DNA of 64,000 nt from the NCBI GenBank assembly GCA_965285935.1, contig OZ260663.1, positions 69,192,001 through 69,256,000 on the forward strand, written 5' to 3'. Every line of letters starts with the position of its first letter. The stretch's first letter is position 1. The notes below the pieces were generated by a model. That model saw only the letters and a program-made list of their open reading frames with translations. It did no database searches and was not told the origin of the DNA. This DNA comes from Ophelia neglecta. Its lineage: Eukaryota. Of this stretch, positions 16,801 to 59,662 are shown one piece after another. The position numbers and the translations under genes are program-made.

Positions 16801-19800
16801 ACCTCATGAACGTCAGACACACATTCATGCAAAGGCATATCGTGTTCCAGTTCCTTTTGGCTTAGTTCATCAGTAACTTCCGTTTTTTCTTCTTCCACTA
16901 CTTCAATGTTTTCAATAGCTGGCTTTTCATCCTGGAAAACTTCCAATTCTATTTTCTTATCTTCTGTTTCTTTGGAAAGCGAAGTCAATATTTCCTCGGT
17001 GCTGTTGGGCGAGGACTCACTTGGCCCTTGGATCACTGGAACAATACTTTCTTTAATTTCAATAGTATTTTTAACATCTTCTGAATCCATAGTTGTAGGC
17101 TCGTCTATATCATCATCAGTCATAAAAGGTATACCATCATCCACGTCAAAATGTAATTCTGGATGGACTAAAACGTTGCCAGAGACAGATTTTTCTAGCT
17201 CAGGTTCTTTTTCGGCAAGAACATCTGATATTTCTTCTTGCACCGCTTCAACGTTGTCAAATATTGTCTTTGCTTCCTGCAAGTCCTCAGATTCTATTGC
17301 TTCATTTCCAATCGTTTTTGGTACTATGGTCACTTTTTCTGTTTCACTCTCTTCATTTCCTACATGTGTTGAATCTTCAAGTTTTGGCTCTTCTACATCA
17401 TCATCAGTCATAAATGGTATCCCATCATTTACTTCAGGAAGTACACTAGGGGTGGTAGTGATTGATTCTACCACACGATCTTGTGTACTGGTCTCATTTT
17501 CAATAAAGTCAGGGACATTTTGAAGCTCAGTTATACCTATTCCTTGCTTTGAATGTATTTCCCCAGGAGCAGACTGATCTGTAACGGAGCTAACTTTGTC
17601 GGTATCTTGATTTGAAGTATCATAGTCTGTTTTTGGGTCTACTGATTCAGTATGGTCCTGGACTTGAAAATTTACTTCAATGTTTTCTGCATGCATTTCA
17701 CATTTCTCAGATTCATCAGAAGACAAAGTATCTTGTAGATCCTCATCTGTCATAAAAGGAATACCATCATCCACATCAAGAAGTACCTCATGAGCGTCAG
17801 ACACACATTCAGGCAAAGGCACATCTTGTTCTGATTCCTTCTGGTTTAGTTCATCAGTAACTTCTGTTCTTTCTTCTTCCACTACTTCAATGTTTTCAAG
17901 TGCTGGCTTTTCATCCTGGATAATTTCCAATTCTATTTTCTCATCTTCGGTTTCTTTAGATAGTGAAGTCAATATTTCGTTGGTGCTAATTGACAAAGAC
18001 TCACTTTGACCTTGGATCACTGGAACAATACTTTCTTTAATTTCAATAGCATTTTTAACATTTTCTGAATCCATAGTTGTAGGCTCGTCTATATCATCAT
18101 CAGTCATAAAAGGTATACCATCATCCACGTCAAGAAGTACCTCATAAGCGTCAGACACACATTCAGGCAAAGGCACATCTTGTTCTGATTCCTTCTGGTT
18201 TAGTTCATCAGTAACTTCTGTTCTTTCTTCTTCCAATACTTCAATGTTTTCCAGTGCTGGCTTTTCATCCTGGATAACTTCCAATTCTATTTTCTCACCT
18301 TCCATTTCTTTAGATAGTGAAGTCAAAGTTTCCTTGATGCTTATCGGCGAGGACTCACTTTGACCTTGGATCACTGGAACAATATTTTCTTTAATTTCAA
18401 TAGTATTTTTAACATCTTCTGAATCCATAGTTGAAGGCTCGTCTATATCATCATCAGTCATAAAAGGTATACCATCATCCACATCAAAATGTAATTCTGG
18501 ATGTACACAAACGTTGCCAGAGACAGATTTTTCTTGCTCCGGTTCTTTTTCGGCAAGAACATCTGATCTTTCTTCTTGCACCGCTTCAAGATTGTCAAAT
18601 ATTGTCTTTTCTTCCAGCGAGTCTTCAGGTTCTACTGCTTCATTTCTAATCGTTTTTGGTACTGTAGTCACTTTTTCTGTTTCACTCTCTTCATTTTCTA
18701 CATGTGTTGACTCTTCAAGTGTTGGCTCTTCTACATCATCATCAGTCATAAATGGTATCCCATCATTTACTTCAGGAAGTACACTAGGGGTGGTGGTGAC
18801 TGATACTACCACAGTATCTTGCGTTCTGGTCTCATTTTCAATACTGAAGTCAGGTATATTTTGAAGCTCAGTTATATCGATTTCTTGCTTTGAAGGTATT
18901 TCTTCAGGAGCAGACTGATCTGCAACGGAGGTAACTTTGTTGGTATCTTGATTAGGAGTATCACAGTCTGTTTTTGTGTCTACTGATTCAGTATGGTCCT
19001 GGACTTGAAAATCTACTTCATTGTTTTCTGCATGCATTTCACATTTCACAGATTCATCAGAAGACAAAGTATCTTGTAGATCCTCATCTGTCATAAAAGG
19101 AATACCATCATCCACATCAAGAAGTACCTCATGAGCGTCAGACACACATTCAGGCAAAGGCACATCTTGTTCTGATTCCTTCTGGTTTAGTTCATCAGTA
19201 ACTTCTGTTCTTCCTTTTTCCACTACTTCAATGTTTTCCAGGGCTGGCTTTTCATCCTGGATAACTTCCAATTCTATTTTCTCATCTTCCGTTTCTTTAA
19301 ATAGTGAAGTCAAAGTTTCCTCGATGCTAATTGGCGAGGACTCACTTTGACCTTGGACCAATGGAACAATATTTTCTTTAATTTCAATAGTATCTTCAAC
19401 ATTTTCTGAATCCACAGTTGTAGGCTCGTCTATATCTTCATCAGTCATAAAAGGTATACCATCATCCACGTCAAAATTTATTTCTGGATGTACACAAATG
19501 TTGCCGGAGACAGATTTTTCTTGCACAGGTTCTTTTTCAGCAAGAACTTCTGATCTTTCTTCTTGCACCGCTTCAACATTGTCAAATATTGTCTTTTCTT
19601 CCGGCACGTCTTCAGGTTCTATTGCTACATTTCCAATCGTTTTTGATACTGTAGTAACTTTTTCAGTTTCACTCACTTCATTTTCTACATGTGTTGAATC
19701 TTCGGGTGTAGGCTCTTCTATATCATCATCAGTCATAAATGGTATCCCATCATCTACTTCAGGAAGTACACTAGGGGTGGTGGTGATTGATTCTACAACA

Positions 19801-22800
19801 GTATTTTCTTGACTGGTCTCTTTTTCAATATTGACATCAGGGATATTTTGAAGCTCAGGTACACAGACTTCTTCTTTATTTGAAGATATTTCCTCAAGAG
19901 AAGACTGATGTGCAACCGTGCTTACTTCATCTGGCTCTTGACTTGAAGTATCGTAGTCTGTTTTTGGTTGTGGTATTTCAGTTTGATCATTGGCTTGATC
20001 AACTATTTCGTTGCCGGTTTCTGCTAACATGTCACATTTTGCAACAGCATCTGTGGACAAAGTACTTTGTAGATTATCATCTGTCATAAAAGGTATAATA
20101 CCATCATCCACATCAAGAATTGTTTGTTGAACTGCTGTTTCCGTTGGATATTGGACTTCAGGACCTATTTCTTTGCTGTGATCTTCTTCCAGGTCACATT
20201 TAGCAAATTCATCAGTGGACAAATCTTGTTGGTCATCACCAGATATGGTAGTAGATGTCTGCAAAGCAACTGCTTCTGGACTAGACTCCTGTGGCACAAT
20301 GTTATCTGGCACATAACGTTGCTCTGCATCTAATTCTTCTGACTTCGAAGTCACTTCTTCAGAATCAGACTTCACATCAACTGTGATTACTTTGCCTGGA
20401 TCTTGATATAAAATTTCATTGCCAGTTTCTTGGACTGCTGATTTCATCTGGACTTCAGGGACTATGTCTTCACTGATATCAGGAATATCACATTTGTTGA
20501 GCTTATCTGTAGGCACATTAGTTAGAACATCTTGATTTTGGTCATATTTTTTAATAAGAGCCACATCATTATCGACACTTAGGGGTGAAGTGGAAACTGC
20601 TGATGTATTCACTGGAGAAGCATTGTCATTGATTGGTGCACTCTTTACCTCCACATTAAGGTATTTTTGTACCTCAGGGCATAATTCTGTTAAGTCTTCA
20701 TTCTTTGTATCTAATTTTGACAGGTCCTTGGCTTTCCGTCTAGCTTTCTTATTTCGGCGACGCTTTTGTTTACTTGTGAGATTGTCGTCGTTCCCATCCT
20801 CCATACCAATTGCAGACAAGCTTGCTTGTGTTGCAGATGCATTTTGACCACTCTCTTCATGGGCGATGCTATCATGTGCATCACCTTGAACATCTTCTGC
20901 AGGCAACAATTCTTGGTTCAATGGCTCTTGTAAACCAGGCTCCTTTTTCACTGAAGGCTCATCATCATAACTCTGATGTGAAGAAGTAGGCTTGCAAGTT
21001 GTATTTGGAACTGCACATTCCACTTCCTCCTGGACTGCAGGAGCTACACCTTTAGCAATTTTTGTAGCAAAAGTATTTTTGGCGGACTCCTCTATGGTTG
21101 CCTCATTTTCCTGACCATTATCTGTCATAAAATTTATATCATCATCGTCATCCACAACTATTTCATTAGCGGCAGACTCATTCCTAGATAAATCAATTTC
21201 TTGGGTGAGCTGACCAAGGTTTGTTTCAGTTTCTTCTGAAACCTCCATCTTGTCCAAAACAGGCTGCTGTTCAAATATTTCAGGTGTCACCAAAACACCG
21301 TCAGTTTTAACACTAGGTTTAGATTCATTCTGGCTTTGGATTAATGGTTCTTCTTGCATTTCATCCTCAGTAGCTTCTATTTTCTGTTCACTTGGCAATG
21401 TAGGTATAGGACAAGATGCTAACCAAGCAGGAAAATTGTGTATTATAAGGGTTGGAGTGACAGGACATATTAATTCTTCTTGGATTCTTTCACAAGAAGG
21501 CTCATTTCTCGTATCCACTAATGTTTCTGTTGTTGCAGGACATTTGTCTTCTGGAGGCAGTTCATTGAAGCACTGCTGCAGCATTTCACTTTCTGACACA
21601 TTATTTAGTGCCTGTGAATCATTTTGGCATGTTTCTATATTCTGTGCTGTGGCATTGTCTTCTTCATTGATGCATGCCACTAACAGTGCTGATTGGGTTT
21701 GTTTTGATACTGATGCAGAAATTAACTCGTTTTTTTCTGTGACAACTCCTTCAGGATGGTTGTTTTCAACAGGTGTATCAAATGGTTGTGATGTCTCTTT
21801 TTGCATTTGAAAATTAGCCTCTAAGTCATTATTTGACTGGTATGCATTAGAATGAAGAATTGCATTTGTTCTATCTGTTACTGGATTGATTGATTCGTCA
21901 GCCTTTTTACCTATTTCACTTAATGCCCCTCCATAGAGCAGGTGTAGGCCCACAGCATATGTTACACAAGAGGGTACTCCTTCCATCATTGCTGCCTCTA
22001 ATGTGCTGAGAAGTGGTTCACTTTCTATTACGTCATGATCCGACGTATGTGATGTATGTGATAACTCGGTAACTTCAATGGGAACTGATTCTTCACTCAA
22101 ACATTTCTTCTTAAGCTCAAAGGATGTGGATGCTTCTTGACTAATATCTGTTTTTTCTGTGATACATGTATGCTGACCATTAATGGTCACAGGGATGGTA
22201 CTAAGGGCAAAAACTCCTGGCGCATGCTGCACAGCCTTTGGAACATCTTCCATCAGATATTTTTCTGTTGTTTCTTGAGCGCTTTCTTCAGAGCAGGTCT
22301 CAGGAATTTCAGCCGCAACCAAGTCCTCTTGATTAGATACGCAGATTTGGGAACTTGGATTTTCATCGCTTCTATGTGGCTCTCTATGATCTACAGGACC
22401 CCTTTCTTGTATGATGTCTGATTTGAGATTTCCTTTCTCCAAGCAGGTTTCTTGAGTATCTGAAAGTTGATACTGATCTTTATCCTTGACTTTCATCACA
22501 GGGGTTAATTCTCCACATGCACCTTTAGCATTAGCTTCTGACTGATCATAGAAGCCATTCATTCCCACAGGTACATCTTCAAGTACCAGCATTCCTGTTG
22601 AATGAATGACAGATGGAGGAATATCTAACTTGTAACTAGGTTCATCCACGATTTGTATGTTCGGTGTATCCAGCTCAACAACAGCTACAGATGAGTCTCT
22701 TATGCAAGGAGACATAACTGTTGCATCATCTGCTTCTTCTGCCATGGGTTCAGACCTTGTAATGTCAGTCTTCAAGTGTTCATCAATTTGACTTGTTGAG

Positions 22801-24356: not shown

Positions 24357-25277
24357 CTGGAGAGAGGAAAACAAATGACAAGGTTTAAGTATTTGACTGT
24401 GATACTGAAAAATGGATGGTACTGAGACAATGAAGCAACATCACACCCAACTTAACATGCATGTATCCATGTGTGCACTGACATGAAAAGCTGCTAAGGT
24501 GAGAGGCTCATCCAAAACCATACCACAGAATACGAATAAAGTGTACAGCCATGCTCTCCCAAATTACGCATATATCACTTATGCTACATGTTACAGATGA
24601 ACTAAAGAAGATGAAAACAGTAATACCAAAAGCCTGAAAGTGATGAATCAATATCAGATATTACACCAAATTAATTCACACTGAATGAAACCTGTTTGGT
24701 GTTTTCATCAGCATTAATTTTATGAAATAAATGACCAGTTTTGAGGTTACTTCTCGATAACATTCCTGCTGATACAAGCCATCAAGTTCAATAAATGCAG
24801 CGATGCAGGCTAATTGTTAGATTGGAGTAATGATTTAAATCTCTTAAATCTTATTACCTCCTTAGTATAAAAAAGCAACCCTGTATAGCTGAGAAATACC
24901 CTACTTTAACATTTGGATGAAACATTATATTAACAGAACTGTCCTAGATAACTGTGTATAATAGAGATACGATTCTGCTAGGGGCTATTCAATTGGAGAG
25001 GTGGCAGGAACAGAATTGAATCTGTTTTGACCCACACCCCTGGTGACAATGATTTGCCACACCTATATTTATATATATATGCATTCCTGGTGCCCCAATA
25101 TTCAGACTCTGTTGTAAAAAACGTCACAAGGTATGGTACGAGGACCTTGACAGTGGACCTTGTGTTGCAATCATCTGTTGATGTTTAAATGTTATGAATA
25201 ATTCACAAATTAGTGACACCAGGAATCATGTCAAGTGCAGGGTACTCTCTCCACAACTTAATGTTACTATATTGCAT

Positions 25278-28500: not shown

Positions 28501-31071
28501 CCAATTGGTTCATATATGATTATAAATTTGATTAAAGACTATACTTCAAAAATAGTATTAAGCCTAAAAAGTATTTAGGAATGTGCAGTGTTAATAATAT
28601 ATTAATAAATCTAATTGAATGTAAGATCAGCAAAATTGCTTATATCAAGTTAAAAATCATAATAGGAGCAATAAAGCTGGTGAAGATATAATCTAGAGAC
28701 CTGAAATTTACACACAAAATTTTGTTTACACACAGTATAGAAAATATTTAGCTGTCTTAGTTTAATCACTCACCATTTGGGGCCTCTAAGGCTGTGTCTT
28801 GAGATTGGTCTGGAGGTGTGGGTTCTGAGGAGTCATCGTCCTTTTTGCGTCTGCCACGCTGTTGCCGGTTTGCAGCCAAAACCTCCATCTTGGCTTGGTG
28901 AGCTTCTTCATCTCGTACCTTCTCTTCTAACATTCCCTTAAGTAATAGCCAAATAAACTAATAAGGGAAGGGTGTAAATTTAATTCAATTTTTGTTCATA
29001 TATTCCTGACAATGCACCATAACAAGTTGATAGGGACATTTATTTAAATGAATCATCTTTCACAAATCTTCAATTATGTGCAATTATCTTAAAACTCCAG
29101 AAATGTAAATACTCTAAAAATAAATGATGTATGGGTGGCTGGTGAAGCCTCTAAGATACTAGTAGTATACATGGTGGGTTGAATCACTATGATGATCATT
29201 AGTCTCTTGCCTGATGATTGTGTTAAACATAATGTTATTTCTGCAATCTAATCACATAGGTCTTACTTACCTTGGCATTTTCAATGGCTTCGGGGGTGCC
29301 TCTCAGGACAATTTCTTTAGTGTCATTAGGACCTGTGTCCTCGGAGCGATCAATCATGATTCTGCATTTCGAAGCCCTCTGCAGATGTCGAATGGTTTCA
29401 CCTGCTCGACCTAAAAATTAACATCATTGCAATTATCAGGCTTACCCCGGGGGACCACTTCATTTTGGTAAGGTGCTCCCAAAGCAAATCTTTCATTTTG
29501 ACCATCTGAGACCTATCTCAATGCCAAAAATACCCTGAGATGCCACTTCCATAACTTGGAACACTGAATTGTTCATTATATGAAATTAAGTTAAAAACAA
29601 AGTTCTTAATGCCTCTGCTTTCGTTGAAGCGAGCTATCCGACCATTTGACCCAGCAGGAGAAGACAGCAAAATGGTAGTAACCCATGGAAAAGCCTAGTT
29701 GCTGCTTTTTACTGATACAGATGTGGAGCAGTGACTTTCATGATGCTAAAGTATTAGGGAGGGGAAAAGATTTATAACAATAATAATCAATTACTTTTTT
29801 AATTTTTTCCCCTTAATTATGTTTTTTTTAACATGTGCATTTTAGGTTCATTCTTTGGCACAGTTAAGACAAATTTCCACATACCAATAATTCTGCCAAG
29901 GGCTTTCTGCGGTACGAGAACTGTCTCTGAGACAAGGGGAGGTTGGTCTGCAATCACTTTACGCACCATCATCTCTGCCTGCTGGGCTCCCTGCTGGGAG
30001 CCTCTGATGACTAGAACGCGGTGTCCTTCTTTGCCTCCTTCATCTTTGAAATCAAGTCTAGCACCAGTTGTTTCTCTGATCTAAAATGTTAATAATAAGC
30101 TTAAAAACTTAATAATCAGGCCCTAATGCTTCCATAACTTAACGCTGTCTTACTTTGCATACAACATGCAAGGGCTTTTCCAAGTAAAAACATAAGGGGG
30201 GAGGGAGGAGAAAATACCTTTTTTTACCACCTCAACAAATTCATTTTTTATTTGTACCCTTTAATAAAGTGCTTCTGAAGCAACGACACCCCCCCCCCCC
30301 CCTCCTTCAGTAATCCCAGCTTAAATATCTTTTTAATAAAAGTCCCACCCTCATTACTGTTATTTAAATAAGTGCATGAGAATTACCTGTTTTTGAATGC
30401 AAGAAAAAAATCACCCACATCATTTTCTTGAAAATAAAATTGCCTGTGGATTTCTTCATTAACTTACGGCCTTCACCCAATTATACCAACTTAGAATCAG
30501 GCATGAAACTACAGAAGAAAATAAGTGTTCCACCCCACCATTACCATATAATATAGAATAGCCCCAATGTAATTTTATTAAGTGCCTTCCTACCTCTTTG
30601 ATCATAGCACCTTGATGACCGATGACAGCCCCAACGGCATCTCTAGGCACTCGAACATCGATCACAGTCTGTCGCGAGGTGACCACCCGGCGATGACCAC
30701 TCTCTTCCTCTTCCTCATCTGAAAATAAATTAGAAATAAACATATTTGCCTGAATATTCAGATCTTCTGCGTTGCATAGATTCTCCATCTAAAAAGTCAA
30801 ATTTGTTATACATTTCATAGGACATAATTAAATGTCGGATCTAAAGCAATGATAATAGTGTATGTATGTTAACAATTTCTCAGAAGTAATAATAACAGAA
30901 CATAGTTTTCAATTCACCATCCTTTTACTGTTTACAGAATGTGCAGTGGCAAGGTCAATAAGATGGTATCAACTTACCTTCACTTTTCTTTAGCAAGAAA
31001 TACAAAAGCAGGGCAGTGACGGGCATAGACACTGCCAGCGCTACTTTTTGGGCGGTTGTCAACTGACGCAT
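25533..31071 (-). CDS. TDRKH: Tudor and KH domain-containing protein (TDRKH/Papi orthologue), short ~489-aa isoform
   Basis: Hand-spliced GT-AG exons with consistent phases: 30978-31071 (MRQLTTAQKVALAVSMPVTALLLYFLLKK, TM anchor), 30594-30718 (KH1 VPRDAVGAVIGHQGAMIKE), 29885-30080, 29271-29410 (KH2 GRAGETIR), 28774-28936, 28225-28460 (VWVSAVEHPGHFWVQ), 27818-27990 (Tudor WYRARV...YYVDYGD), 27092-27156 (SDFFSLPFQALRCSLA), 26826-26977, 26120-26228 and a putative last exon 25533-25549 (..PATCK*). TM-KH-KH-eTudor order is diagnostic of TDRKH. The last exon is less certain than the rest. Confidence 0.93.
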
Positions 31072-34000
31072 TTTGAGATCTGTTAAGACTTCCCTTATAA
31101 AACACTCTATCAGCTCCAAAAAGCAAGAGATTGGTATAGCACCAAAGAAAGTTGAATCACAGTCTCTTTATCTATCACAGGGAAACATGTGATTTCTCAA
31201 TCTGAAAAGAATTAAAAAAAATAGGATGATTATGATTAAAATTAGCCTAAGAGTACCTGGTACTTGCACATTTAGTGAATTCATAATCTCTTCAACAATA
31301 CTAGCCATTTTATGTACAGAGAGGTGATACTGATACACTTGATATATAACTGACATGCATTAAGTTACTTGACAATGTACTAAAAGGCATTTTCATATTT
31401 AATATATCTCCTTAATGCTAAAAGAGTCTAGGTGAATGTGCACGATTACATGTTTATTGGATGAAAAGCTGCCAAATATTTGAAAATGGAATAAAACTAC
31501 ATTCAAGTCCATAGATTTAGTTACAATAACATCCATGGAAAGTCTAAACAAACAGTGCTCGACACAGTAAAAAATATAAGTTATTTAACCGCCTTCACTG
31601 GCCAACAACATATTAAATTTTAATACGAGCTTCTTCTGAACACAACACCTTTCTATTAAATGTCAGCTGCACAACACGGTGGCAGTTTTTCCATCCTTGG
31701 CTAATTTCCAACTCTTTGAGATTGTGATGTGTTACTGCCAATCTCTACCGAGCCCAGGTATACCAGTAGATCATGGAAATAACACACCTACATGTTACTC
31801 TGAACAACAGGAATTTAAACAAGGTGCAGCCATTCTGTAGTCCTCTCACAGCGGCTCTAATAAAAACCAACTGAATTCCACTCAGGAGTTGTCGAAAAAG
31901 ACATTTATTTATCATAGCTCTGTAGCAATGATCTCTCAAAGGATTCTGCCAAACTATTAGAATAAGTTGAGTAGCTCTTGATAAGTAAATGATGGACATG
32001 AAATGATTTTCAAGTAGCAGGCAATAATCAAAGAAAGTATTCTTACAAGGTGAGCATTTCAGTAATGGCAAGTACTCTGATCTATTAGATCTGTGTCTAG
32101 AATCAGAACTGCGGTTATCACATCAATCACAGTGAATTTTGTTCAGAATGAGAAGAAAAGAATCTGTTGTTATCTACAAAAACTAACCATTACCATTATT
32201 ACTGAGTGAATTCTTCTCAGAGCTGCTCGGTTTTCCCAGTATTACTATGATTGAGTGTGAACAGCATTGCCACCCGTACAGATTTGACATTACACTGAGG
32301 TGTGTCTAAGTCAGGAGGTGGAAAGTGCAACAGGGCAAACCCTGCAGCTTTATGTTCCCAAGTTAGAACCGTGCAGTCCTAAACTACTAACTTTGCTAAC
32401 CAAACAGCCATTTCATATACAAATGCCGTCATCTGGGGAGCAGTTGTTGATCTGCACCAACGCATAGGCTTCTGACCAAAATAACAAAATGTCAAATACA
32501 CAAGAGTTCAAATTCCTCTTTTTACATACAGCCTGGGATTCCATGAAGGAAGTCTGCTGGCTTGCCTACATGTATATAGGCACATACATGTTCTGACTGA
32601 CGTATAGCATTTGGTTAGAAAGCATGTTTGTCTTAATCAATATATTTTATTGTATTATATCAAAGTCAGTCTACTTGACTTAAGTCATTAATTGAATAAT
32701 GTGATCAAGTCTTACAAAATTTTGCAAAAAACCTGTCTGATTCAATGTCTGTTCCTTGGTTGGCTAGCTGTTTTGGTAGAGATGAAATCCATCCTTGTGT
32801 TTAAAAACTGTCAATCCTGTGACTCATCCACACAGAGGATGTCTGGGTTTTGTTGCTCTACACACCCAAAGCTAGCCACGTGATATCTTACACTATTCCA
32901 TATGGTCAATATTCCAGATAGCCTAAATCTTGGTTAAATATTTAGCTGCAAACCATTTAAAAATATCAATATGCTAAATATTTAGAAAGGCTGCTCAAAA
33001 TATGATTTAGCCCTATGCACATTACATAACAAACATGTGAACACCTACTCCGGCTGAAGAACTGACTTTCATGACTAAGGATTCCTAGTCAGGTTTCTCT
33101 TACTTGCACATCAATAAGCTTTTTTTCCTCAACAGTCTACATTTCACAAGATAAAGACTGGCTTAAAGGTTTGCATACACAATTCAATGATGTTTTGGTA
33201 CACTGCTTTGCACCTGTACACTTAACGGAAATCTGTCACATAAAGAATCGTATTATGAAGAAAAAATCTTTGCTAGCAGAAATCAGTAATCAATTTGCAG
33301 GTGATTTATCATATCAAGACCAGTATTAACTGCAGCCTAGTACAGTGTCTCAGCAGCTCCGTTGGGTAGGTGGCCGGCTTTCTGCTAAGCCTTTTGATTA
33401 ACAGGAGGCACAGTTTTACAATATATCATTTTTATGTGTTTTTGTAAAAAACAACTATTATTTCCTATGAAATCCCAGCGGAGATGTCACATGCATGGTA
33501 GACCTAGCTGGTGTATGACTTGCAGTTTGCATGGACTAACAATTAGGCTTATTGCAGTACGATCTATCATTGATACCCAACAAATATATCCCTGATATTC
33601 CAATATACTCCCAATAATCATTGAGACCAATTTCCAGGAAAATAAGAGACGGATTGGTGTGAACGCTAAATAAACTGTCCGCGAACCACATAAACCACAT
33701 GAAGCTACATGCATATAAATTTCGACATGTGACAGGATGCGTGACCTCAGGATATGTCCCACATGATATGCAAATTGATTTATGATTTCTGCTTCCAATT
33801 TTTTTTTCTAGTTAAACTTTTGTTGTTTACGTGACATATTTCTGATGTAATAAATAAAACAGCACAGTATTATGTAAACTATTATGTAAACTAGAAAACT
33901 GATAAGGGGGATTATATCCAAAGGGTAGCAGAAATGAGAGATAGGGTACCTCCTGATATGTCTCCTGGAAGTGGCAAAAGGTGAGCCAATTTAGCTGGTA

Positions 34001-38200: not shown

Positions 38201-39204
38201 TATTAAAAACAGACAATCCTGCATTAAAGGGACCTTATCAGGACAGCCAAACACTAGTTTAAAGTAAGGGTGAATATACCTGATAACAATGTTATTTAAC
38301 TATACTCCTTGAAACTGGTCACCAGTGTTTAATGGGGCAATATTGTATTTATAGCTGTTAATTGATTAGGCCTGATACACTCAGTCTTCTAGTCATCAGA
38401 GTCATCACTCTGGTTTTACATCAAATCCACCTATAAATCTAGTCATCAGAGTCTGACATGGATTCTGTGCCCTATCAGCAGTATTTCTATAAACAGTATC
38501 TTATGACCTCATGTTGCATCATATGTGTTTTTTTTACTAAGGGAAATAATCTTTCAAAATGACCACTATGCATGCATAAACACCCACAAAATCAATACCA
38601 TACAAAAAGTACATCACATACTGAACACTTGGTATGCATTTTTAAGACACGGAGATGGCTACATGCCTGACAAGGCATGTGGATACCCAGCAATGATGTA
38701 ATCAGAAAATGACTCCAAGGATGGTGCTCTGCTGCAGTGCTGCTTTAAGGTATGCATGTGCAATGATGCAACACAAATATATATGCAGAGTGTTGAATTA
38801 TTCAAGGAAATATGGTGAAAAGTAAGGGATAGCAAAATCTGCAGTTTAGGTTGAAGGTACTATTATAGGAGAAATGACTACAGCTCTTATGCAGGCAATT
38901 GCCGGAAGCATTGCACAATTGTGTGCAGCTGCCTGTCCCAGACAGTCTAGCAGTTGGTACTTACATAGATAGATAGGAGCCGACTCTTGGGGAAGGCAGG
39001 CCAGCCAGAGCAGGAAAATCACCAACCACACACACGCACGTACAGGCACAAATAAAATAGACTCGTGGCCTCTCTGGCAAAAAGACAAGATTTCACCACC
39101 CTACTGGCTGCTGCATGTAAAATCATCACACAGTTCAGGTACGACCAAAAATAGCTTCCAGGAAGGCCAGAAATCAGCAGTGTACAGTTATCTCTTCTGT
39201 GGGC

Positions 39205-41607: not shown

Positions 41608-42203
41608 GAAGAAGAACCACTCTCCACAGCAGAGGTGTCGCCACATGTCGTTGCAGGCTATGCCATAACGACAATGGTGGCCTTATGCTGTGCAGTGGGT
41701 GCAGTGGTAGCCGTGAGCGTGTGACAGGTAATGTCGACAAAATAGTCGCGCTGCTGTAGAAATTGGAGAACAGCATGCAAAAATGGCAGCAAACATGATG
41801 TCAGTGATATAGCGCTGAATTTTATCAACTGCGCTTACATGAGATTTTTGGAATGTTGCAAAACTGATTTCTTGTCTTGACAGCAAGCAACACTTCAATG
41901 AGGTGTTTGATAAAGCACAAAAATAATAACGGTGTATTTGACCAACCAACCTTGACTGAAAAAAGCCAGCCCAAAGTTTAAATAGGATTTGCAATGAGAA
42001 GCCACCCTTTGACATGGTCAAACTCAAAATGGATATGTTTGGGGCTTGGGACTAGCTCCATCTCTGTTTGATGTTCTTGCTCACTCTTCACAATCCACAG
42101 CAGAGGTGTCGCCACCTGCATGCTATACCATAACGAGTGCACAATGACTGGTTACTTTGACGTAATAGTCATGCAGCTGTGGAGAGTGGTTCTTGTTTCT
42201 TCA
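41608..42203. repeat. Possible ~600-bp MITE remnant
   Basis: Inverted repeat aagaaccactctccacagc (about 41612-41630) / gctgtggagagtggttctt (about 42177-42195). Internal direct repeat cacagcagaggtgtcgccac at about 41625 and 42096. No clear TSD. Confidence 0.45.
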
Positions 42204-42396
42204 TAGGCATGTGCCTTCCTCCAGCAAAGAAGCAGCATAGCAGAATGACATTCACTAATGGCAATGATTTCATGTGCATTTTAAGAACAAATAAGGCAGG
42301 TCAATAGCATACACAAGGTGATTTTGAGACAAAAACTCAACAACCTGAAGAATAAAGAAGCATTTGAAGGCATAAAAGAAATGCCTATGCTCAATA

Positions 42397-44048
42397 CTGT
42401 AAACCCCTTATTGTTTGCGCGCTTTTTATTTCGCGACTTTCGCGAGGGTTACAAAATCGCAAACATTAATGTTCGCCAAATATAAAGGTCGCGATAATAA
42501 AAGGGCGCAAAAATAATTGGTCCCTAGCTAGCTCTAGCTAAACTGATCGTAAGTACTGGTATGCCAAGCTACGGCTACTGCACATCTGGTCCCCGGCGTG
42601 AACGGTCACCTGCTATGGCCGGCCGATATTTTAATGTACGAACTGTTTCTCCATTAAAAGTCCCTGCAACGAGCGGTCACCTGCTATACGCGGACAGTCC
42701 TACAGTGAACTTTTTCCCCTGCTACGAGGGGACAAACAACATATTTATTGATATTTTTGTACTGAATTTCCTTGCCTTCGACCGGAATTAAAAATATCTG
42801 TGCACGGCAGGACGCGAGTACATTTTTGACCGTTCTCCATATCAGCAACACGGTCCGAGTCGTGAAAGTTATAGTGGTTGTAGACACTTGTGAGATGGCA
42901 GAGCGATGTAAATTGATTTCAAAAAGGGAATGATTTTACCAGTAAGGCAACTTGTGTTGAACAGCAAAGGAAAATAAAAAATAATTTATAAAGAAATGCA
43001 TAAAATGTTTTATTTTGAGGGAACTCGGATGTAGTCCGTGTGACTCGGCACTCAGCGCATCCCATTGCCAAGTGGCCGGCCGCCATGTTTAAATTGTTAA
43101 CGATCTCCGACTTGTTGCTCACAGGTTCTTCAAGTTGTTTGAAAGATGTGTAAACATTTGATCACACACAAAGAACAAAGACTCTGTGAATAAATGTGTT
43201 TGTTTGTTGTGCAGCGATTACACGGGCATCATGCGTGTAATTATGTGTATAGGCCCGATCGATGACTGGCTGACAGTCGAATTGTTTGTAACAGCTTGGT
43301 TACGCTAGCCAAGATCCGTAGCTCTGGGCCCCTTCCTCGTGTATTATTTGGGACCCCTACGGTCCCACAGTGTCTGCATAGCTCAAATGTGACATTATAA
43401 ATGGACCTAGAGCTACGTATTTTGGATAGGGTTACGCTACTGAAGGACTGAACTTAAGAATATGTCACAAGGGACCGCATGCTGATCGAGTAGAATGCAT
43501 GTAACTTTTCACAATGTCTTCAAGAGGACTTTGTGAAAAGTTACATTCAGAATTCCATATTATTCTGCTGGAAATTAACACAGTGAACTTATTCATGGAA
43601 ATGTTTGTCCAAAAACAATTCATAATATATTTTTTAATAATTTTTGACAAAATAATAACAAAACAAAATTCCATGTATGATAACAATAAATACATACAAC
43701 TGATAAGCTTGTCATTATAGATAATTTAATAAATTAATCACAACAAATTCTGCATAGCCATTGTGTCGGGTGTCCTGTCCCTTCGATGAAGGGCCACCTC
43801 CAATGTATGGCCACTTTTGCTTGGATGGACAGGTGGCCCTACATCGCAGGGACTACTGTACCATTCATAACAGTTATGTTACAAATGCCAGACAGCACAC
43901 TGCAGAGGGTGACTAAGGGTTAAGGGGTACATAAACATGCAGGCAACTACAGGATAAAGGATAGCATATAGTGGATGAATGAAGAGTGCAAGAGTTAAAA
44001 TCACAAAATCGCGCACATTTTTAGGCGCGAATATTAAGGGGTTTACAG
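42397..44048. mobile_element. TA-flanked Tc1/mariner-type non-autonomous element carrying nested insertions
   Basis: TA|CTGTAAACCCCTTA ... TAAGGGGTTTACAG|TA with CG-rich (tcgcga) subterminal repeats. The interior holds a second MITE family (about 42580-43860) and a small hairpin element (43306-43428). Confidence 0.75.
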
Positions 44049-45073
44049 TAATAAAAAGTCATGACATGCATGTACAGGCTCTCCTTGGCTCTCTGGCAAA
44101 AAGACAAGATTTCAGCACCCTACAGCACGCATGCCACCTGGGTGTGAGCGCCATTAGTCATGTGGACTACTCACTATTTGTAACCTCGTAGGGGCAACAT
44201 CTGGTTGCGGTATTATGTTGCAACTCGGCAATGAAAGCAGTGCAGCCATCCACCCAGTGGCAAACACCTTTTGTACTCACAATGCTATTAGGCATGTGAT
44301 GGCCGATATTGTATCAAGCAATAAGTGATAAATTAAAAGTAGATAATGAAACTTTGGCTGATATATTCAAATTTAATAGGAAAGGATTTAAGGCAAAGTA
44401 ATTGCTATTTCACCGCTTTAGATAGATAACCACAATTTCTCGTAAGAGTTATTTAAACAGCTTGGAGTAATTGTGGAAGGTTGGAAAGTGAAAACTAATA
44501 CAGCCGGGTAAAAGCATTTGCCCAAGCCATTATTTCCTTCATATGTTGAAACCTTCCTTATATATACCACCTTTTGGGCCCCCCTCATGCTGCTAAAAAG
44601 ATTTCACAGGAATAAAAGTTTGTGTTAAAACAGAAGAAATGCTACGCGTTTATTAACTCTGCTTCCTGGTAAGGCAGTTCATACTAAACATCAAAACCAA
44701 CTGAAACCTCAAGAAACCAACCCAAACCAAGTTTACATTATCCAGAAATGTCATGTTAACATTGTTAGGTGTTTTTTGTTAAAAAAAAAGATTTATATCC
44801 GATCTTGCAATCAAATGGGCTTCGCATTTATGACACTTGCGCAAAGCTGACATGATTCTATGTGAACCCCCCCCCCCCCCTCATGGACTAGTAGCGACTA
44901 ACAAGAACATGCTCTGACCGGCGTGACAATCATGGAGAAAGTAAATACCGCTGGTAGGCATACAATCCTGTAATATCGCTCGACTGACGTATGTGTTAAG
45001 GGTCATTAACAAATCAAAGTGAGAATAGACATAAGTAACAGTTAGATTTTATGAAACAGAGTTACGTAATCAC

Positions 45074-45190
45074 CTTCGTCAAAGTGTTGTCATTGTCACC
45101 TGCAGAGAAGCTTAACTCGTAATTGAATAATTTATGACGATCCCCGTTTTCGGAAATTCGCACACGGTAATTACGGAAAGCACCTTTTAC
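45074..45190 (-). other. Putative non-coding first exon of TDRKH
   Basis: Donor AAG|GTGATT at 45074/45073 in a CpG-containing patch next to the TXNL1 promoter. The ATG exon has an acceptor (ttaacag| at 31079), so an upstream exon is needed. Would imply a ~14-kb first intron. The 5' boundary is a guess. Confidence 0.45.
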
Positions 45191-45193
45191 CTG

Positions 45194-45208
45194 CAGCGCC
45201 ACCTGGAG
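45194..45208 (-). promoter_or_regulatory. CTCF-like site CTCCAGGTGGCGCTG in the TDRKH/TXNL1 divergent promoter
   Basis: Near-consensus motif abutting the left TSD of the foldback element. Motif match only. Confidence 0.4.
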
Positions 45209-45502
45209 TTTCATCGGGAGTCCCTAAACGGAGGATCTAATATAGGAGGATGCACCTGCGCCATGTATAAGCGCGCATTTGGAGGATGCACCTGCGCCAT
45301 GTATAAGCACATCCGCCAATTGATTTGGAGGATGCATCTGCAGCCATGTATAAGCGGCGCCGCACTAAACCGCGGATGTTGGTAATATATTAGCAGCCAT
45401 ATATTGGGCGGTCATGGCGGACACTATATATATGTGGGCCTGGGTGGGATACATGGCGGATGTGCTGGCAGAGTACTGGGCAAGGTATCCGTTTTTAGTT
45501 TA

Positions 45503-45792
45503 GGGAGCGTTCATTATTTATGGCCGGGGGGGGGGGGTGGTCTCAGATCTGAAGTCTCAGATATTAGGGACGGACCATTTGATATTTGGGGGGGGGCCTA
45601 GAAAATTTTGGAAAAAAATTGTTTGTTTTCACTTTTGTACAATATATATTTCTAAATAAAATTGCGCACCCTGTGAATAGACTAAAAAAAAACTGTCCCC
45701 CCCATGGAAATGGGTTGAAAAAAAACTGTCCCCCCCATGTCCCCCCCCAAATTTACCACCCCCCCCCCCGGCCATAAATAATGAACGCTCCC
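45503..45792. mobile_element. Nested PIF/Harbinger-type MITE (MITE-1)
   Basis: TIR GGGAGCGTTCATTATTTATGGCCGGGGG at both ends, flanked by TTA on both sides. Confidence 0.75.
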
Positions 45793-46311
45793 TTAGCAAT
45801 AGTAGGTGTACTATTATTATACATGAGTTTTTCTTCTTTTTTCAGGAGTTCCTCATCCCACATACCTACAATCAGATACGTTGCACTATATTGCCTGTAG
45901 CCTGTAGGCCTGTATCTACCTCTATACGAATTACTATGTACTTTTCAGCAAACTTTCAAGACTTGTTAACTTTCAAGTTATTTTTTTAATGATGTAGAAC
46001 TATCTCTAGTCAATTTGCAATATAGGTAGTTAACTTCCTGAAATTCAGTGAAGAACTGAACTATCCAGGCTAGATCTCAGTTTTTAGCATGTGATAGACC
46101 AATCAGAATGACTTTCTGGGGAGTATCAATGACTTGCTAGCCAATCACCTATTATTTATCACAGGATTTCTAATTCCAATCAATTCTCACATTCACCTCA
46201 TAATTTGGCTAGGTGTGAAGAAAAGTCTCCAAAGTGTGTGAATATGTTGTTAGCAGTACACAATTGTGAATGGGAGAATAAAAGAGGGAACATCTGATTG
46301 CAACTCAATAA

Positions 46312-46589
46312 GGGACGGACCATTTGATTTCTGTGACAAACTTTTTTTTTCATCTTTTTAAGGAAACAATCTTTTTTTTTTCAATATACATGACCAACAA
46401 ACAATTTTTTTTCACCTTTGTATAATGTAAAACATTTTATTTATTGTTCCTGCACAGCAGTATTAAAAAAACATAAAATAATTCAATGCAGGGACCTATA
46501 CCCAAAAAACGTGTATTTATGGCCAACTGAAAACAATTTTTTTCCAAAATTTTCTAGGCCCCCCCCCCAAATATCAAATGGTCCGTCCC
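46312..46589. mobile_element. Nested PIF/Harbinger-type MITE (MITE-2)
   Basis: TIR GGGACGGACCATTTGAT / ATCAAATGGTCCGTCCC, flanked by TAA on both sides. Confidence 0.8.
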
Positions 46590-47036
46590 TAATATCTGAG
46601 ACTTCAGATCTGAGACCACCCCCCCCCCCCCGGTCATAAATAATGAACGCTCCCTAAACTAAAACCGGATACCTTGCCCAGTACTCTGCCAGCACATCCG
46701 CCATGTATCCCACCCAGGCCCACATATATATATAGTGTCCGCCATGACCGCCCAATATATGGCTGCTAATATATTACCAACATCCGCGGTTTAGTGCGGC
46801 GCCGCTTATACATGGCTGCAGATGCATCCTCCAAATCAATTGGCGGATGTGCTTATACATGGCGCAGGTGCATCCTCCAAATGCGCGCTTATACATGGCG
46901 CAGGTGCATCCTCCTATATTAGATCCTCCGTTTAGGGACTCCCAGTTTCATCGCAGATCGTCTGTGTTGTGCCGAATCACGGCTACCGGTCTGGTACAGA
47001 AGTAATTACGTTTTTACCGGCGAACCTACATCAAAT

Positions 47037-50000
47037 ATGGCTGGATCTGTAAAAATGATAGAAAACGACCAGCAGTTCCTTCCTGAATTGACGAATGCAG
47101 GAGCAAAGTTGGTTGTTGTTGACTTTTTCGCAGTTTGGTGAGTGTGCAAATTAATGCATGAGCGAAAATAGGGCAAGATTACATATCAACAACATATAAG
47201 TTGTAACCCGTTCTGCAAAAACGTTTGTTAGATATGGTAGAATCAATTTTGATGGGTCAAAATCTATTCCACCTTATAGAATAAATCACCGTCTTTATTA
47301 GAAAGAAATAACTCAACTCGATGATCTATTTAGATTGTAGGTGAATCTTTGAACTTGATCTGAAGCCTACATTAATGCAGGGTTCACAGGAAGGATAATT
47401 CTGGGTTGTGGCCAGAATGGGGGATTTGCCCCCATCTCTGACCTATTTAATGGGGCATTTTTCAAAGCAAAGGGGATACATTTTCAGTATAGTTTAATGG
47501 TCTATAATATGCCATTTGTTAATAGGATTATTCGATTTAATAAAACGTTGAAAGACCACTCAAGAATTATTGTGTCAAAAAAATCCAAGAGTAGACAGCA
47601 CTTTCTGGCCTTTGTCTGGCCTAAGACACATATTTGGTGGCATACTGTGCCAGCGAAGAAAAGCGGCTATGCGAAGTGAGATCAGCGGTAGTACTAAGGA
47701 AATTGTGTCCCGTTAGAGATCATGAACAAAACCTGGCCTGGGAAAAAACCACTTTCGTGGGCTTCATTTACATGTATGTAGTTGGTTATGAACGGGTATT
47801 GGTATCAACACATTTAACAACTACGGGACATAGCAGAATAATCCCTGGGTTCATTCTAGGATTGAAAGCTGATGGGACAAATGACCCACTGCCAACAATT
47901 TTGATGGGTCAGTTTTGAAATCAATGGGTTACCCTTTTTTTCATTTTATTTTTTCAGAGAGGAATAGCAATAAACAGTTTGTTTTATTAATTTTAATATG
48001 TAGGAACTGGTATATTGAATATTGTCAAACAGGGTTCGAATTAATGGCGTCAGGGCCTTAATTTACCCACAAATATTAATTTGGGACCCAACATTTAACA
48101 TGCCTACACGTCCGCCGGACGCTTAAAAATCATTATGACTCAACTCCTGTAAATGTCCTTACTGCCCAGTTTTCGTTGTAAACTTGTTTGTTGTTTCGGG
48201 CCCCCTAGATCATTCAAAATTGAGTGCACAGGTAATTTTTTTCTAATTAGTTGACATGGTTATAGTTAATCCAATCACAACTAGGCTTACAAGGGGGCTT
48301 GGTTAATGGGTCAGGGAAAGGTTAGTATCAGGTCATGCAAATGGCGTGGTCAGCAAGCTCGTCATTTGGAGGCGAGGAATCATTAGAATCAAATCGATAT
48401 TTAAATTAAATATAGATATAGCTATCCTTAACCTGATGGATCGGTAACTGCCATTGTCTTCTGCCTGAAATTTTACTTATTTTCCCAATAGATTAAATTA
48501 GTGAATTAGAACATTGAATTTTGAATTCGTGTAGTGCAGCAATGAAATAAGCGATTTATGGCATAAGATACTTGTTCTGGTTTTCGAGCTAACTCCATTT
48601 TTGACATTTAAAGGTATAATTGTATGATCTCAAAAATATTCTAAATATTTATAAGAAGCAAAGTGTTTTATGGCCAGCATAATCTGGGGTATAAAACTGA
48701 GGCCCATGTATTTTTAGCAAATTTAGTAGCCCTTACTAGCTTAGGAGCAAAGACTGAAGCTGAGAAAAAAATTCTGGACATTGCAAGTGGTTTTAGAGGT
48801 ACATGTACATACATGTACATGTGGCAAAAGCTCATCCAATGGCAAGCTTACAAATGTTTCACGCCCAAAAATCCTAGTCCTTAAACAACAGCACAATATA
48901 TTGCATTCCCAGTTGAATAAACATAGGTTTCTTGACATTGTTTAATAATATTGTGCTAAATCAAAGCAGTAATTAATAATTTTGGATTGTTGTAATGTTT
49001 CCAATATTCAGGGTTTGGGTTGTTATAAAACATGCATTCAATGATTGAGAACGTAAATTCCCATGCAGAAATGGCATCATAAAGTCAAACAGAACAGGGA
49101 TCAGGATGAAAAATCACAAAATTTTGGGTATGATCATCTATCGAAAATTTGTGATTCTACCAAATATGTGAGATGCAAATACATGTAACTAGGCTCGACA
49201 CCTTCATGATGATGCATTGTCAGCACCTTCTTGGATTTGGCTAACAACAGTAAATTGTCATAAGTTTCATAACCTAGAGCAAGCAATGTTGCATTCAAAT
49301 ATATACAGCAGTAAATTATCCCAGTATCAATTTTTATGCACAAAAAGTGCTCTACTTTTTGCGAATGGGATATCCACTATTAAACTGCCAGTATGGTCGG
49401 CAGGACCTAATCAGGCTGTTAAAATATCCAGAATATCATCCATGCTGGTAAAAATGCTGGTAATTTTTACCTGCTTGGATGATTATTGTTGAAACCTTAT
49501 CTAGTTTAAGAATGTCTTGTACTTCTAGGTAGGCCTACTTCATGTGTTGTACTTCACCAACATGAATGGTTTTCTTAAGACACATAATAGAACGCTTTAT
49601 TAATCTGTCTAATGATTTTTTTCAAAAATCACTTGTTTAACCATGATATGCTTTGCTGAGTTTGATCACACTGCACTGTCACACAGACAATTTTACTTTC
49701 CTTTTCCATAGTGCCTTGTTAGATTTCAAAACTGCTGAGTATAATTTTTCCCTTTCCCAAAGAATTAACATTGTGAAAGTCCTTATTATTTCATTTGCCA
49801 ATTTCAGGTGTGGACCGTGTCAAAGAATAGCGCCTGTATTTGAATCGTTTTGTGCAAAGTACCCAAGAGCAGTTTTCCTCAAAGTAGATGTTGATAAATG
49901 TCAGGTAAAAATAATGTATAATGTGTATCATTTCTTAGGCAATATAATAATTAAACCTCATAAGATGTTTTAGGGTTAAGTTATGCCATTTATCGACATT

Positions 50001-54377: not shown

Positions 54378-54700
54378 GACGGTGTGAGATAGGCACATAC
54401 TATGTATTGAACACTAATAGGATCTCATATTCAAGGAATCCAGTGGTGTCCTTGAATATCATCTTGAGTTTATTTTTCAAGGTCAAATCTTATCGGTGAG
54501 AGATAGAAATATAAAATGTTCTAAAAACTAATAGGAAATCATACAAAATGAATCCAGTGGAGTTCTTGAATTACACCTTGGGTTTATTTTTCAAGGTCAA
54601 ATATTAACGGTGAGAGATAGGCATATAAAATGTTTTGTACACTAATACGAAATCATTAACAAGGAATGCAGTGGTGTCGTTGTTTTTCACCTTGTAACTT
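54378..54700. repeat. Three diverged copies of a 114-bp tandem unit, probably part of a non-autonomous DNA/Helitron-like element extending to about 54870
   Basis: cggtg(t/a)gagatag at 54380, 54494 and 54608. Each unit contains aat(c/g)cagtgg; the first two end in tttattttcaaggtcaaat. Confidence 0.8.
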
Positions 54701-57364: not shown

Positions 57365-58380
57365 CATCCCCTGCGGGTTCGGGGAAAGAATAGGCCCGAC
57401 GTACCTCTGCGTGTCGTAAAAGGCGACTAAAAGGGGCGTCCTGTTTGCCGTTGGAATCAACCTGTGTTGGGGGAAAGACGGGATCCTGGTAGTTGAGCTT
57501 ACCTGATCACCGCGGTGTTTAGCGACAACACACCACTTCGACCCTTATTGGCATCTGGAGACTTCCTCATTGAGGTCTCCAGAAAATCCCAACATGACAA
57601 CCTGCTCGGATTAAAGTCTCTGGTAGAGATCCCTGTCAAGGCGACTCCTCACAAGTCAATGAATACTAGTAAAGGAGTCATCCGCTGTCGGGATCTCAAT
57701 GCCTGCACTGAGGAGGAGATTCTGGATGAACTCGAAGACCAGGGATTAACACAGGTCAGGTGCTGCACACGCAAGACACCTGACACTGCTGTGAAAACTG
57801 GTACTTATTTTTCTAACATTTAACTCTCCAAGTCTACCTCCTACATTGAAAGCTGGCTTCTTGAACCTCAAGGTTACACCCTACGTGGTACCAATTGCAA
57901 GGGAGCGCATGCCTCGTCTGATCGTAAGTGTCCCGTCTGGGTACGGGAAAAGGAGATGCAGGCCTATAAAGCAGTCTCCTTTTCTGGAACTCGTAAAATA
58001 ATTGAAACTAGAACACCAGGCGGACCAGCTGGCAAATCTTACGCCGCTGCAGCAACCCCTGTCTTAAAACGAGCTCCTACCCAGAGATCGGCGGAGATTC
58101 AGGTAAACACCGAAGAGTTGAAGTCTCTTGCTCCAATACATCCATCAACGAGCAAGTCGAGCTATCGAGGCAAATACTAACACAAACTTAAGTCAGAATA
58201 ACCCAAACAGAACAAACGATCACTACCAATAATAGACCTCACACAGACAGAGAACGGAAAGGGGAGGACCCTGTCTCCCAATTTAACCGTTTTGGTGCGC
58301 TGTCTGGGGACGAGGAGGAGGAGATTGATCACCAAAGTGATACACCTCCTCCTATGAACCTGGCTACGGGTCAGGCGACC
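57365..58380 (+). mobile_element. 5' part of an I/Nimb/Loa-type non-LTR retrotransposon: structured leader plus disrupted gag-like ORF1
   Basis: LASGDFLIEV...PHKSMNTSKGVIRCRDL...EEEILDEL..QG is characteristic of I-clade ORF1. Zinc-knuckle remnant NCKGAHASSDRKCPVW at about 57893-57940; KSYAAA motif. Stops and deletions present; no ORF2. Confidence 0.82.
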
Positions 58381-59662
58381 ACAAAAACTAACATAGTTAG
58401 ATTAAATCGGGGCCCTCCCCCAAAAGAAAATGCATGGCAACTAAATCGATATTCTGCAAAGAAGGTCAAGAAGGTCAATATAGGAAAGAATGCTCGAAAA
58501 TCTCTTGATGCACCAGGTATACTGCTCATTAATTCTTGTCCAATTGTAAAAGAACTCGTTAAGTGATGCTAAAAAAGTTGTAATAAACTTTTTATCTCAT
58601 AGTTTTTCTGATTTACAGGGTTTAGTGATCTTTACAAGCTGCTCTTCAGGAATGAATGTTTGAAGATGTTAGGTGTCATAGTGGCAGGACTTCAGGAGCG
58701 ATGTCCCTTGAAAATCTTTTTCCTTTGTGCAATCAAAGCCTTTGATCCCTTAGGGATAACAACACACTGCTTCAGTTAGAAAATCAATCTAAACCCTCAC
58801 TAACAAGTGTCTTTAAAAGACATTATCTGTCGGCAATAGGGGTAAAGGCGGTTTTTAACCCTTTATCTACAAAACCGCCTGTACGCCATACCCCCTTACC
58901 GTCCAAGACTGCCAGTAGGCTATCAGAGCTACATGTGTATACCTGAACCGTCCGAAACTGCCCTACAAGGGGGTGCCCAACCTTTAACATTACAAAAATG
59001 CGCTCAAGAGATGGGATCGTAGATGTGAGCAATGCATGCAATCGTTAATCAAACTACTTTCCCATAATACAAAACTTCGATATGGTTGCTATTTTTGATA
59101 TAATCTAGTTTTGAAACAGAAACATAAAAAAAAATCAAGATTGGCCACGTGGAGATGGCTGTCGATTATGTTGTAAATCTCTTTTCATTCATTGTTTACA
59201 ACACACTCGATGAACACCTGGGTCAATGGCGTCAACAATGGAAATTCCCCATCACCGGAGCTTCTCAGCATATTGTTTTTTTAAAAACATTTTTGAGTGA
59301 AATGCTCCTGTTATTGACTGTGATGATAACCTTCCCGTAATTTCTTGTTTTTATTACAATTTGTAACGTTATTTATTGACAGAACGATATTTAGAAACAA
59401 GTTTAATTTAACAATTCATATTGAAACAATGTAGATGTAAAACAGGAAAAAAATCATGGGCTCTCTGGCAGGATGCAGCCTTTGGAAATTAAATATGTGA
59501 TTATGGTAGCCTGGGTAAACCTTTGTGTGGCCTACCAATTTTATTTAATGAGTTACCAAGCACATAGTTCCCATTAATAATGTAAACTAAGCTTTGTTCA
59601 AAAGTGAAATATGGCAATCCATTAAAGCTCTTGCTCTAGTACTTCATTTGTAATGTATATAA

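Follow-up and report, generated by a model that had tools for sequence, protein, structure and literature searches.

A non-autonomous foldback-type transposable element of 1,728 bp is inserted beside the start of TXNL1 in Ophelia neglecta. It was examined in a 64-kb window of intron-rich animal DNA (GenBank assembly GCA_965285935.1, contig OZ260663.1, positions 69,192,001 to 69,256,000, forward strand), and coordinates below count from the first base of this window. TXNL1 and TDRKH lie head to head on opposite strands, as expected of genes with a bidirectional promoter, and probably share the promoter that received the element. In the reading we favor, with a probability of about 0.6, an element of Mutator/foldback type landed in an island of start sites, its proximity to TDRKH is coincidental, and its effect is small. 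The feature is real, was correctly located by the initial annotation of this DNA, and is ordinary in kind. Judged by titles and abstract openings, no report of a TDRKH/TXNL1 pair or of such an insertion was found in the literature, most subscription papers being outside the coverage of the search.

Boundaries of the insertion

The element is delimited by an exact target site duplication (TSD) and by long terminal inverted repeats (TIRs, or arms).

45216..46943, unstranded: whole foldback-type element, non-autonomous, 1,728 bp
45207..45215, plus strand: left 9-bp TSD copy, identical to 46944-46952, not extendable
46944..46952, plus strand: right 9-bp TSD copy, identical to 45207-45215
46953..47137, plus strand: TXNL1 upstream region or 5' UTR (84 nt) and first coding exon, with the ATG at 47037 and a donor after 47137; CpG observed/expected ratio (o/e) 1.19 over 46944-47137

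The TSD reads AGTTTCATC and is exactly 9 nt long, the only match among the seven lengths tried (7-13). AGTTTCATC occurs three times in the window, and the chance of finding it at a fixed position is about 7e-6. The arms, 45216-45624 (409 bp) and 46531-46943 (413 bp), are 98.5% identical over 413 columns. They differ by two substitutions and three indels, the indels falling in one run of TA and two of G, and their outer 209 bp are identical. The right TSD ends 84 nt before the TXNL1 ATG, the left TSD lies 133 nt from the donor proposed for TDRKH exon 1 (last exon base 45074), and the two landmarks are 226 nt apart once the element is removed. The initial annotation had given the TSD, the near-identity of the arms and these distances correctly. 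Within the element none of the 39 stop-to-stop frames of at least 30 aa matches Pfam at E<=0.01, and the element is therefore regarded as non-autonomous. The window holds no second copy of the element, the core arm has no match among phage records, and the whole window gave 0 matches in Rfam.

The arms are composite

[quoted passage not shown]

45216..45502, plus strand: left core arm, 287 bp, GC 0.51, CpG o/e 0.85; 286 of 287 aligned bases equal the right core arm
46655..46943, minus strand: right core arm, 289 bp
45503..45792, unstranded: nested MITE-A, 290 bp, perfect TIR of 34 bp, TTA on both sides; whole in the left arm only
46312..46589, unstranded: nested MITE-B, 278 bp, perfect TIR of 17 bp, TAA on both sides; whole in the right arm only
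45503..45624, plus strand: mirrored 122 bp present in both arms, the outer end of MITE-A (63 bp) and then one end of MITE-B (59 bp)
45796..46308, unstranded: unique spacer, 513 bp, CpG o/e 0.12, three CCAATC motifs

Both MITEs have the marks of PIF/Harbinger, namely the TWA target duplication that defines this superfamily (TTA/TTA and TAA/TAA) (PMC4482050), and the short TIRs and size of 100-600 bp of its MITEs (PMC5172404). With 278-290 bp, short TIRs and TWA duplications they resemble Tourist-like MITEs. Neither has another copy within the window.

Independent insertion of MITEs at mirror positions is implausible. The MITE ends are mirrored although neither MITE is complete in both arms, so sequence was probably copied between the arms at least once after the MITEs had inserted. 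This fits two histories: in one the arms were copied twice, once each way, and in the other a single copying was accompanied by two deletions. The likeness of the left interior to MITE-B is weak (33 of 1000 shuffles) and does not fix the order of events. Recruitment of internal sequence into TIRs has been described for Galileo (PMC3573991), and conversion between arms has been proposed for Mu (PMC10401008). Since the arms were copied from each other after the MITEs arrived, their identity dates the last copying and not the insertion. The age of the element, called young in the initial annotation, cannot be read from the arms, although a fairly recent arrival is still compatible with the intact TSD and with CpGs that have not decayed (o/e 0.85). 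It is a caution for dating that such identity does not serve as a clock. The nested MITE ends mark arm-to-arm copying and capture the growth of a long inverted repeat, the most informative detail of this locus.

The three CCAATC motifs of the spacer compare with 0.44 per kb in the window. Its CpG depletion resembles that of a gene body, and the spacer may be captured, formerly methylated and possibly host DNA. A core arm that was itself a separate small inverted-repeat element was considered and is not supported (79 of 1000 shuffles align equally; folding z = -1.64).

The start of TDRKH

The position of the element relative to TDRKH depends on where this minus-strand gene starts. Three features bear on this.

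44880..45206, minus strand: host flank rich in CpG (o/e 1.17) and candidate for the non-coding exon 1 of TDRKH; possible donors have their first intron base at 45190, 45099, 45073 and 44918
30978..31201, minus strand: TDRKH first coding exon, with a strong acceptor and 130 nt of UTR ahead of the ATG at 31071, and encoding a hydrophobic N-terminal stretch
42397..44048, unstranded: separate TIR element flanked by TA, with a 14-bp perfect TIR and small inverted repeats nested inside, CpG o/e 0.91; TDRKH might start here instead

When the 806 AGs between 31.2 and 45.2 kb are ordered by their pyrimidine content and next by T, the acceptor of the first coding exon comes first, and an upstream exon is therefore needed. 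CpG o/e is 0.23 over 31.2-42.4 kb, similar to the value in the body of TXNL1 (0.22); of the 37 windows of 300 nt in that interval, 34 are at or below 0.34, the highest being 0.84. It reaches 1.25 and 1.15 in the two element flanks. Invertebrates usually methylate active gene bodies and leave promoters unmethylated (PMC11292947), and because methylation marks gene bodies the low-CpG interval is read as one long TDRKH first intron that ends at the island. A start at 44.9-45.2 kb is favored by this pattern. A start at 31.1-33 kb, the alternative raised by the initial annotation itself, was checked and is disfavored (CpG o/e 0.26). For the empty allele, CpG and splice signals lean toward start sites within about 1 kb of each other; in the filled allele the landmarks are about 1.96 kb apart.

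Donor sites were scored with a matrix built from 15 donors of both genes, in which held-out true donors score 3.1-11.3. The donor proposed initially (last exon base 45074) scores 5.8; a score of at least 5.75 is attained by 44 of the 853 GTs on the minus strand between 31.2 and 45.2 kb. Higher scores are found at three sites close by, 44918 (8.0), 45190 (7.7) and 45099 (7.4), of which 45190 is inflated because an identical 9-mer is in the training set. The region proposed for exon 1 is thus favored, but its exact donor is one of several candidates. The flank at 44.9-45.2 kb has three donor-like sites within 120 nt, compared with about 3 per kb elsewhere. An acceptor at 45099 that would form a 26-nt mini-exon is not supported (score 1.7, top 22%). 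Strand asymmetry over the 31-45 kb interval is weak and uneven and was not used. Between 31.2 and 45.2 kb, 0 of 81 frames of at least 50 aa match Pfam. The presumed first intron also contains dispersed repeats of 43-49 nt (39062-39104 with 44081-44123, and 41618-41671 with 42089-42136).

Proposed mechanism and effect on the two genes

A transposase encoded elsewhere would have moved this non-autonomous cut-and-paste element of Mutator/foldback build. The enzyme would have attached to the palindromic ends and the subterminal repeats and cut, with a 9-bp stagger, within about 230 bp of open, unmethylated DNA lying between the start of TXNL1 and what is probably the non-coding exon 1 of TDRKH. 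Such a landing would be explained by an element type that seeks RNA polymerase II start sites and not by TDRKH function; its place beside a piRNA gene is probably coincidence. At some stage two Harbinger-like MITEs would have entered at the inner arm ends, and one arm would have been overwritten with a copy of the other by repair or recombination, so that differences were lost and the inverted repeat grew from about 287 to about 410 bp. The nearest 84-130 nt of host sequence would stay with each gene, and on either side the CpG-rich arm ends would prolong the island. Any change in expression is probably small, or a mild reduction, and not under selection. Nothing in the sequence indicates that the insertion changed either gene.

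Mu and P insertions peak within about 50 bp of start sites, with strong enrichment in 5' UTRs and proximal promoters, and most Mu insertions in maize promoters and 5' UTRs alter expression little or not at all (PMC7337890). Applying start-site targeting to the present element is an extrapolation because that study covers plants and flies. The initial annotation had proposed that the element either disrupts or re-supplies promoter activity, a choice that omits this commonest outcome of maize Mu insertions. Its promoter-insertion reading holds in that the foldback lies in a CpG-rich island upstream of TXNL1, and the CpG pattern favors the island for TDRKH as well. Its support from YY1 sites fails, as described below, and its age argument is weakened by the arm-to-arm copying.

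It is unlikely, though it deserves serious thought, that the shared promoter is harmed by the insertion, which would be a rare and deleterious allele, probably heterozygous, in one assembled haplotype. The CpG island of about 230 bp is split and host motifs are parted, the intact TSD and identical outer 209 bp are compatible with recent arrival, and in maize and rice older MULE insertions in 5' UTRs have been purged (PMC7337890). However, the same study found that most Mu copies inserted into a promoter or 5' UTR are minimal in effect and that those in proximal promoters persist. Among the parted motifs is ATTACG, with 4 of its 12 window copies in the two host flanks (45061-45175 and 47002-47010), one of them within the palindrome TTACGTAA at 45062. 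It is a possible host promoter motif, chosen post hoc; 62 of 3000 shuffles yield any complex 6-mer four times. The sequence GTAATTACG, whose only 2 window copies lie one in each flank, was rejected as proof of a single host promoter, since some shared 9-mer appears in 617 of 5000 random segment pairs and 300 of 5000 shuffles.

TDRKH could instead start in the patch at 42.4-44.0 kb or near 41.6 kb, which would leave the element in the TXNL1 promoter only; we think this improbable. The patch has donor-like sites at 42939, 42680 and 42609, with a further site at 41950, and the interval 31.2-42.4 kb includes the one 300-nt window with an o/e of 0.84. However, the CpG content of the patch is accounted for by transposon origin because it is a TA-flanked element with a 14-bp TIR and small inverted repeats, and the flank at 44.9-45.2 kb has both the higher o/e and the close cluster of three donor-like sites.

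Several observations weigh against the reading we favor, an insertion of small effect into a shared start-site island. Start-site targeting has been shown for maize Mu and fly P and not for the family of this element. Upstream sequence that lay beyond about 84 nt from the TXNL1 ATG now stands 1.74 kb farther off, a displacement that could matter. In two annelids promoters make up only 8-14% of unmethylated regions (PMC11292947). A small third gene between TDRKH and TXNL1 is possible, and the first coding exon of TDRKH itself has no Pfam hit, so real exons can escape Pfam. For the patch, CpG o/e is 0.91 over 42395-44050, its three donor-like sites score 6.3, and it carries the only AACATGGCGGC of the window, a YY1-type site at 43089 on the minus strand, facing TDRKH. 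A CTCF-like motif at 45196-45205 on the minus strand ends two bases from the left TSD; with 2 matches in the window, and 15 of 100 shuffles reaching 2, this post hoc observation is a lead only. Finally, the 9-bp TSD and GG ends are shared with Merlin elements.

The locus is a clean case, from an invertebrate animal, of a gene start that has received a Mutator-like foldback element. Were the allele polymorphic, it would offer a natural experiment on the tolerance of a compact shared promoter to a 1.7-kb insertion. Its importance would be much greater if TDRKH output depended on the arm.

Family assignment

The element is MULE-like in build, which suggests the Mutator superfamily without proving membership; because it has no transposase, the assignment goes by build only. 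Its exact 9-bp TSD falls within the 8-10 bp of MULE/Mutator foldback elements (PMC5225508), and its TIRs exceed 100 bp both in the core (287/289 bp) and overall (409/413 bp). Aedes MULEs have 8-9 bp TSDs and mostly TIRs of >100 bp with subterminal repeats, and include non-autonomous copies with heterogeneous interiors (PMC5225508). Subterminal repeats are present here as three units of 28-29 nt per arm, whereas Aedes families have more and shorter units, of 9-15 bp. None of the 39 frames matches a MULE DDE transposase in Pfam, as expected of a non-autonomous copy. The arms end in the following palindrome.

45216..45224 (mirror 46935-46943), plus strand: terminal imperfect palindrome GGGA-G-TCCC, comparable to the Muta1 terminus

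Muta1 ends in the imperfect palindrome GGGTCTACCC, and its transposase binds the palindromic terminus and subterminal repeats (PMC5499845). A terminus of this style is known as a criterion from one family only.

Among known systems, Muta1 and its derivatives in Aedes aegypti, which are type-2 foldback MULEs, share with the element an 8-9 bp TSD, long symmetric TIRs, subterminal repeats, an imperfect palindromic GGG...CCC terminus and non-autonomous copies with unrelated interiors (PMC5225508, PMC5499845). Unlike Muta1, the present element has a terminus of 9 nt, three repeat units of 28-29 nt instead of nine of 12 nt, no known transposase or partner, and arms lengthened by MITE ends. In root-knot nematodes, Tm1 (a Phantom-like Mutator/Foldback element) has composite TIRs, a 9-bp TSD and non-coding copies, one of which also holds a nested element, but its outer motifs are asymmetric and its repeats are about 14 bp, whereas the ends here are symmetric (PMC3169594). 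Extended-TIR '2RT' copies of Galileo in Drosophila mojavensis (P superfamily) are non-autonomous and also recruited internal sequence by arm-to-arm copying. In contrast to the present case, Galileo has a 7-bp TSD and a P transposase and recruited its own DNA, not the ends of two unrelated MITEs (PMC3573991). Maize Mu/MuDR likewise lands at gene starts and keeps its left and right arms alike (PMC7337890, PMC10401008), but it is a plant system in which targeting and expression effects were measured. MULEs and Harbingers both occur in mollusc genomes (PMC10294476).

The same insertion could be a Merlin element or belong to another superfamily, an assignment we consider a poor prospect. Merlin TIRs are 24-462 bp long and start with GG, and the TSDs are 8 or 9 bp (PMC8101967); the element agrees on all three counts, and the foldback build is found in unrelated superfamilies (PMC3169594). 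On the other hand, Merlin TSDs appear to be mostly 8 bp (PMC8101967), no frame of the element has a Pfam match to the IS1595-type DDE transposase of Merlin, and the palindromic GGG...CCC terminus, subterminal repeats and 9-bp TSD together agree with Muta1 and Tm1.

Subterminal repeats and promoter-like motifs

The repeats lie near the outer end of each arm.

45245..45356, plus strand: three subterminal repeats per arm, 28-29 nt, starting at 45245, 45281 and 45327; probable transposase-binding sites

All six copies in the window are inside the element. Two repeats in each arm are identical 28-mers, and the third has one substitution and one extra base. The initial annotation had the three repeats and their positions but called them YY1-like, with CGCCAT cores, and this description fails. 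With CCATNTT as the YY1 consensus (PMC3609554), none of the 58 matches in the window is in the element; the repeats read CCATGTA, and the third has AGCCAT instead of CGCCAT. The only YY1-type matches near the element are one that overlaps the TXNL1 ATG and the one at 43089 inside another transposon. A role as transposase-binding sites of a Mutator/foldback-type element is simpler and probable.

It is doubtful that the arms serve as promoters reading outward, by which both genes are now driven or supported. TATA, initiator, CCAAT and GC-box sites were searched as consensus patterns. Each core arm (GC 0.51, CpG o/e 0.85) has one GGGCGG and two CCAAT, and a TATA-like octamer stands 29 nt ahead of an initiator-like site at the right junction. 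MuDR TIRs hold promoters (PMC10401008), and if the donor at 45190 is real, only 16 nt of host sequence separate it from the TSD, which would place the TDRKH start in the TSD or arm. However, the window has 78 such TATA-plus-initiator pairs, and the junction pair was given no weight. The element has no CCATNTT match, the 45190 score is inflated as noted above, and a transposase-site role fully accounts for the repeats. In the extreme form of this idea the arms would be a portable pair of promoters that has taken over both starts, TDRKH being driven from a transposon end that piRNAs can silence; this is very unlikely. Equally so is the accompanying suggestion that read-through folds into a 410-bp hairpin and feeds small RNAs against the family. 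If true, the takeover would tie a transposon to the pathway that silences it in a natural feedback loop.

An artifact of assembly or read fold-back, suggested by the long, near-perfect inverted repeat and by three of the five arm differences falling in simple runs, is hardly credible given that the TSD is exact, the spacer of 513 bp is unique, both nested elements have TSDs of their own, the arms differ by two substitutions, and host sequence is continuous on both sides.

Flanking genes and other features of the window

The gene names in the initial annotation hold. TXNL1 is on the plus strand, and its exons encode thioredoxin and PITH, the two domains that define it. A search with a 61-aa stretch from the second-to-third exon region gave 21 matches among 84 candidates, 0 of them identical. 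The named best matches were Mercenaria (72% identity), Owenia (70%) and Dreissena (67%); Branchiostoma matched at 78% over two thirds of the query. These matches point most probably to a marine invertebrate host. On the minus strand, TDRKH encodes a hydrophobic N-terminus (Kyte-Doolittle mean 1.96 over 19 residues) followed by KH and Tudor exons whose closest solved relatives are TDRKH and Papi. It thus has the N-terminal membrane anchor, two KH domains and Tudor domain of TDRKH/Papi proteins. Mouse TDRKH has the same architecture and a role in piRNA trimming and LINE1 silencing (PMC6411938).

On the minus strand an open frame at 4806-24440 runs for 6,544 codons without interruption; the last coding exon of TDRKH (26228-26085) lies 1.6 kb upstream of it. 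The frame is acidic (E 13.7%, D 9.4%), has internal repeats of 354 nt and gave no convincing Pfam match. Its CpG o/e is 0.28, and that of the interval to the last TDRKH exon is 0.31, with no island. A phase-0 acceptor of the frame (first exon base 24356) fits a phase-0 donor at 26144 within the last TDRKH exon. The frame is possibly a giant alternative tail of TDRKH, or an exon of another gene.

Downstream of TXNL1, a tandem array at 54379-54694 has about 2.8 copies of a 114-nt unit. On the plus strand at 57497-58566, in a GC-richer segment, three adjoining frames resemble a broken retroelement ORF1, with a weak PRE_C2HC hint (E 0.19).

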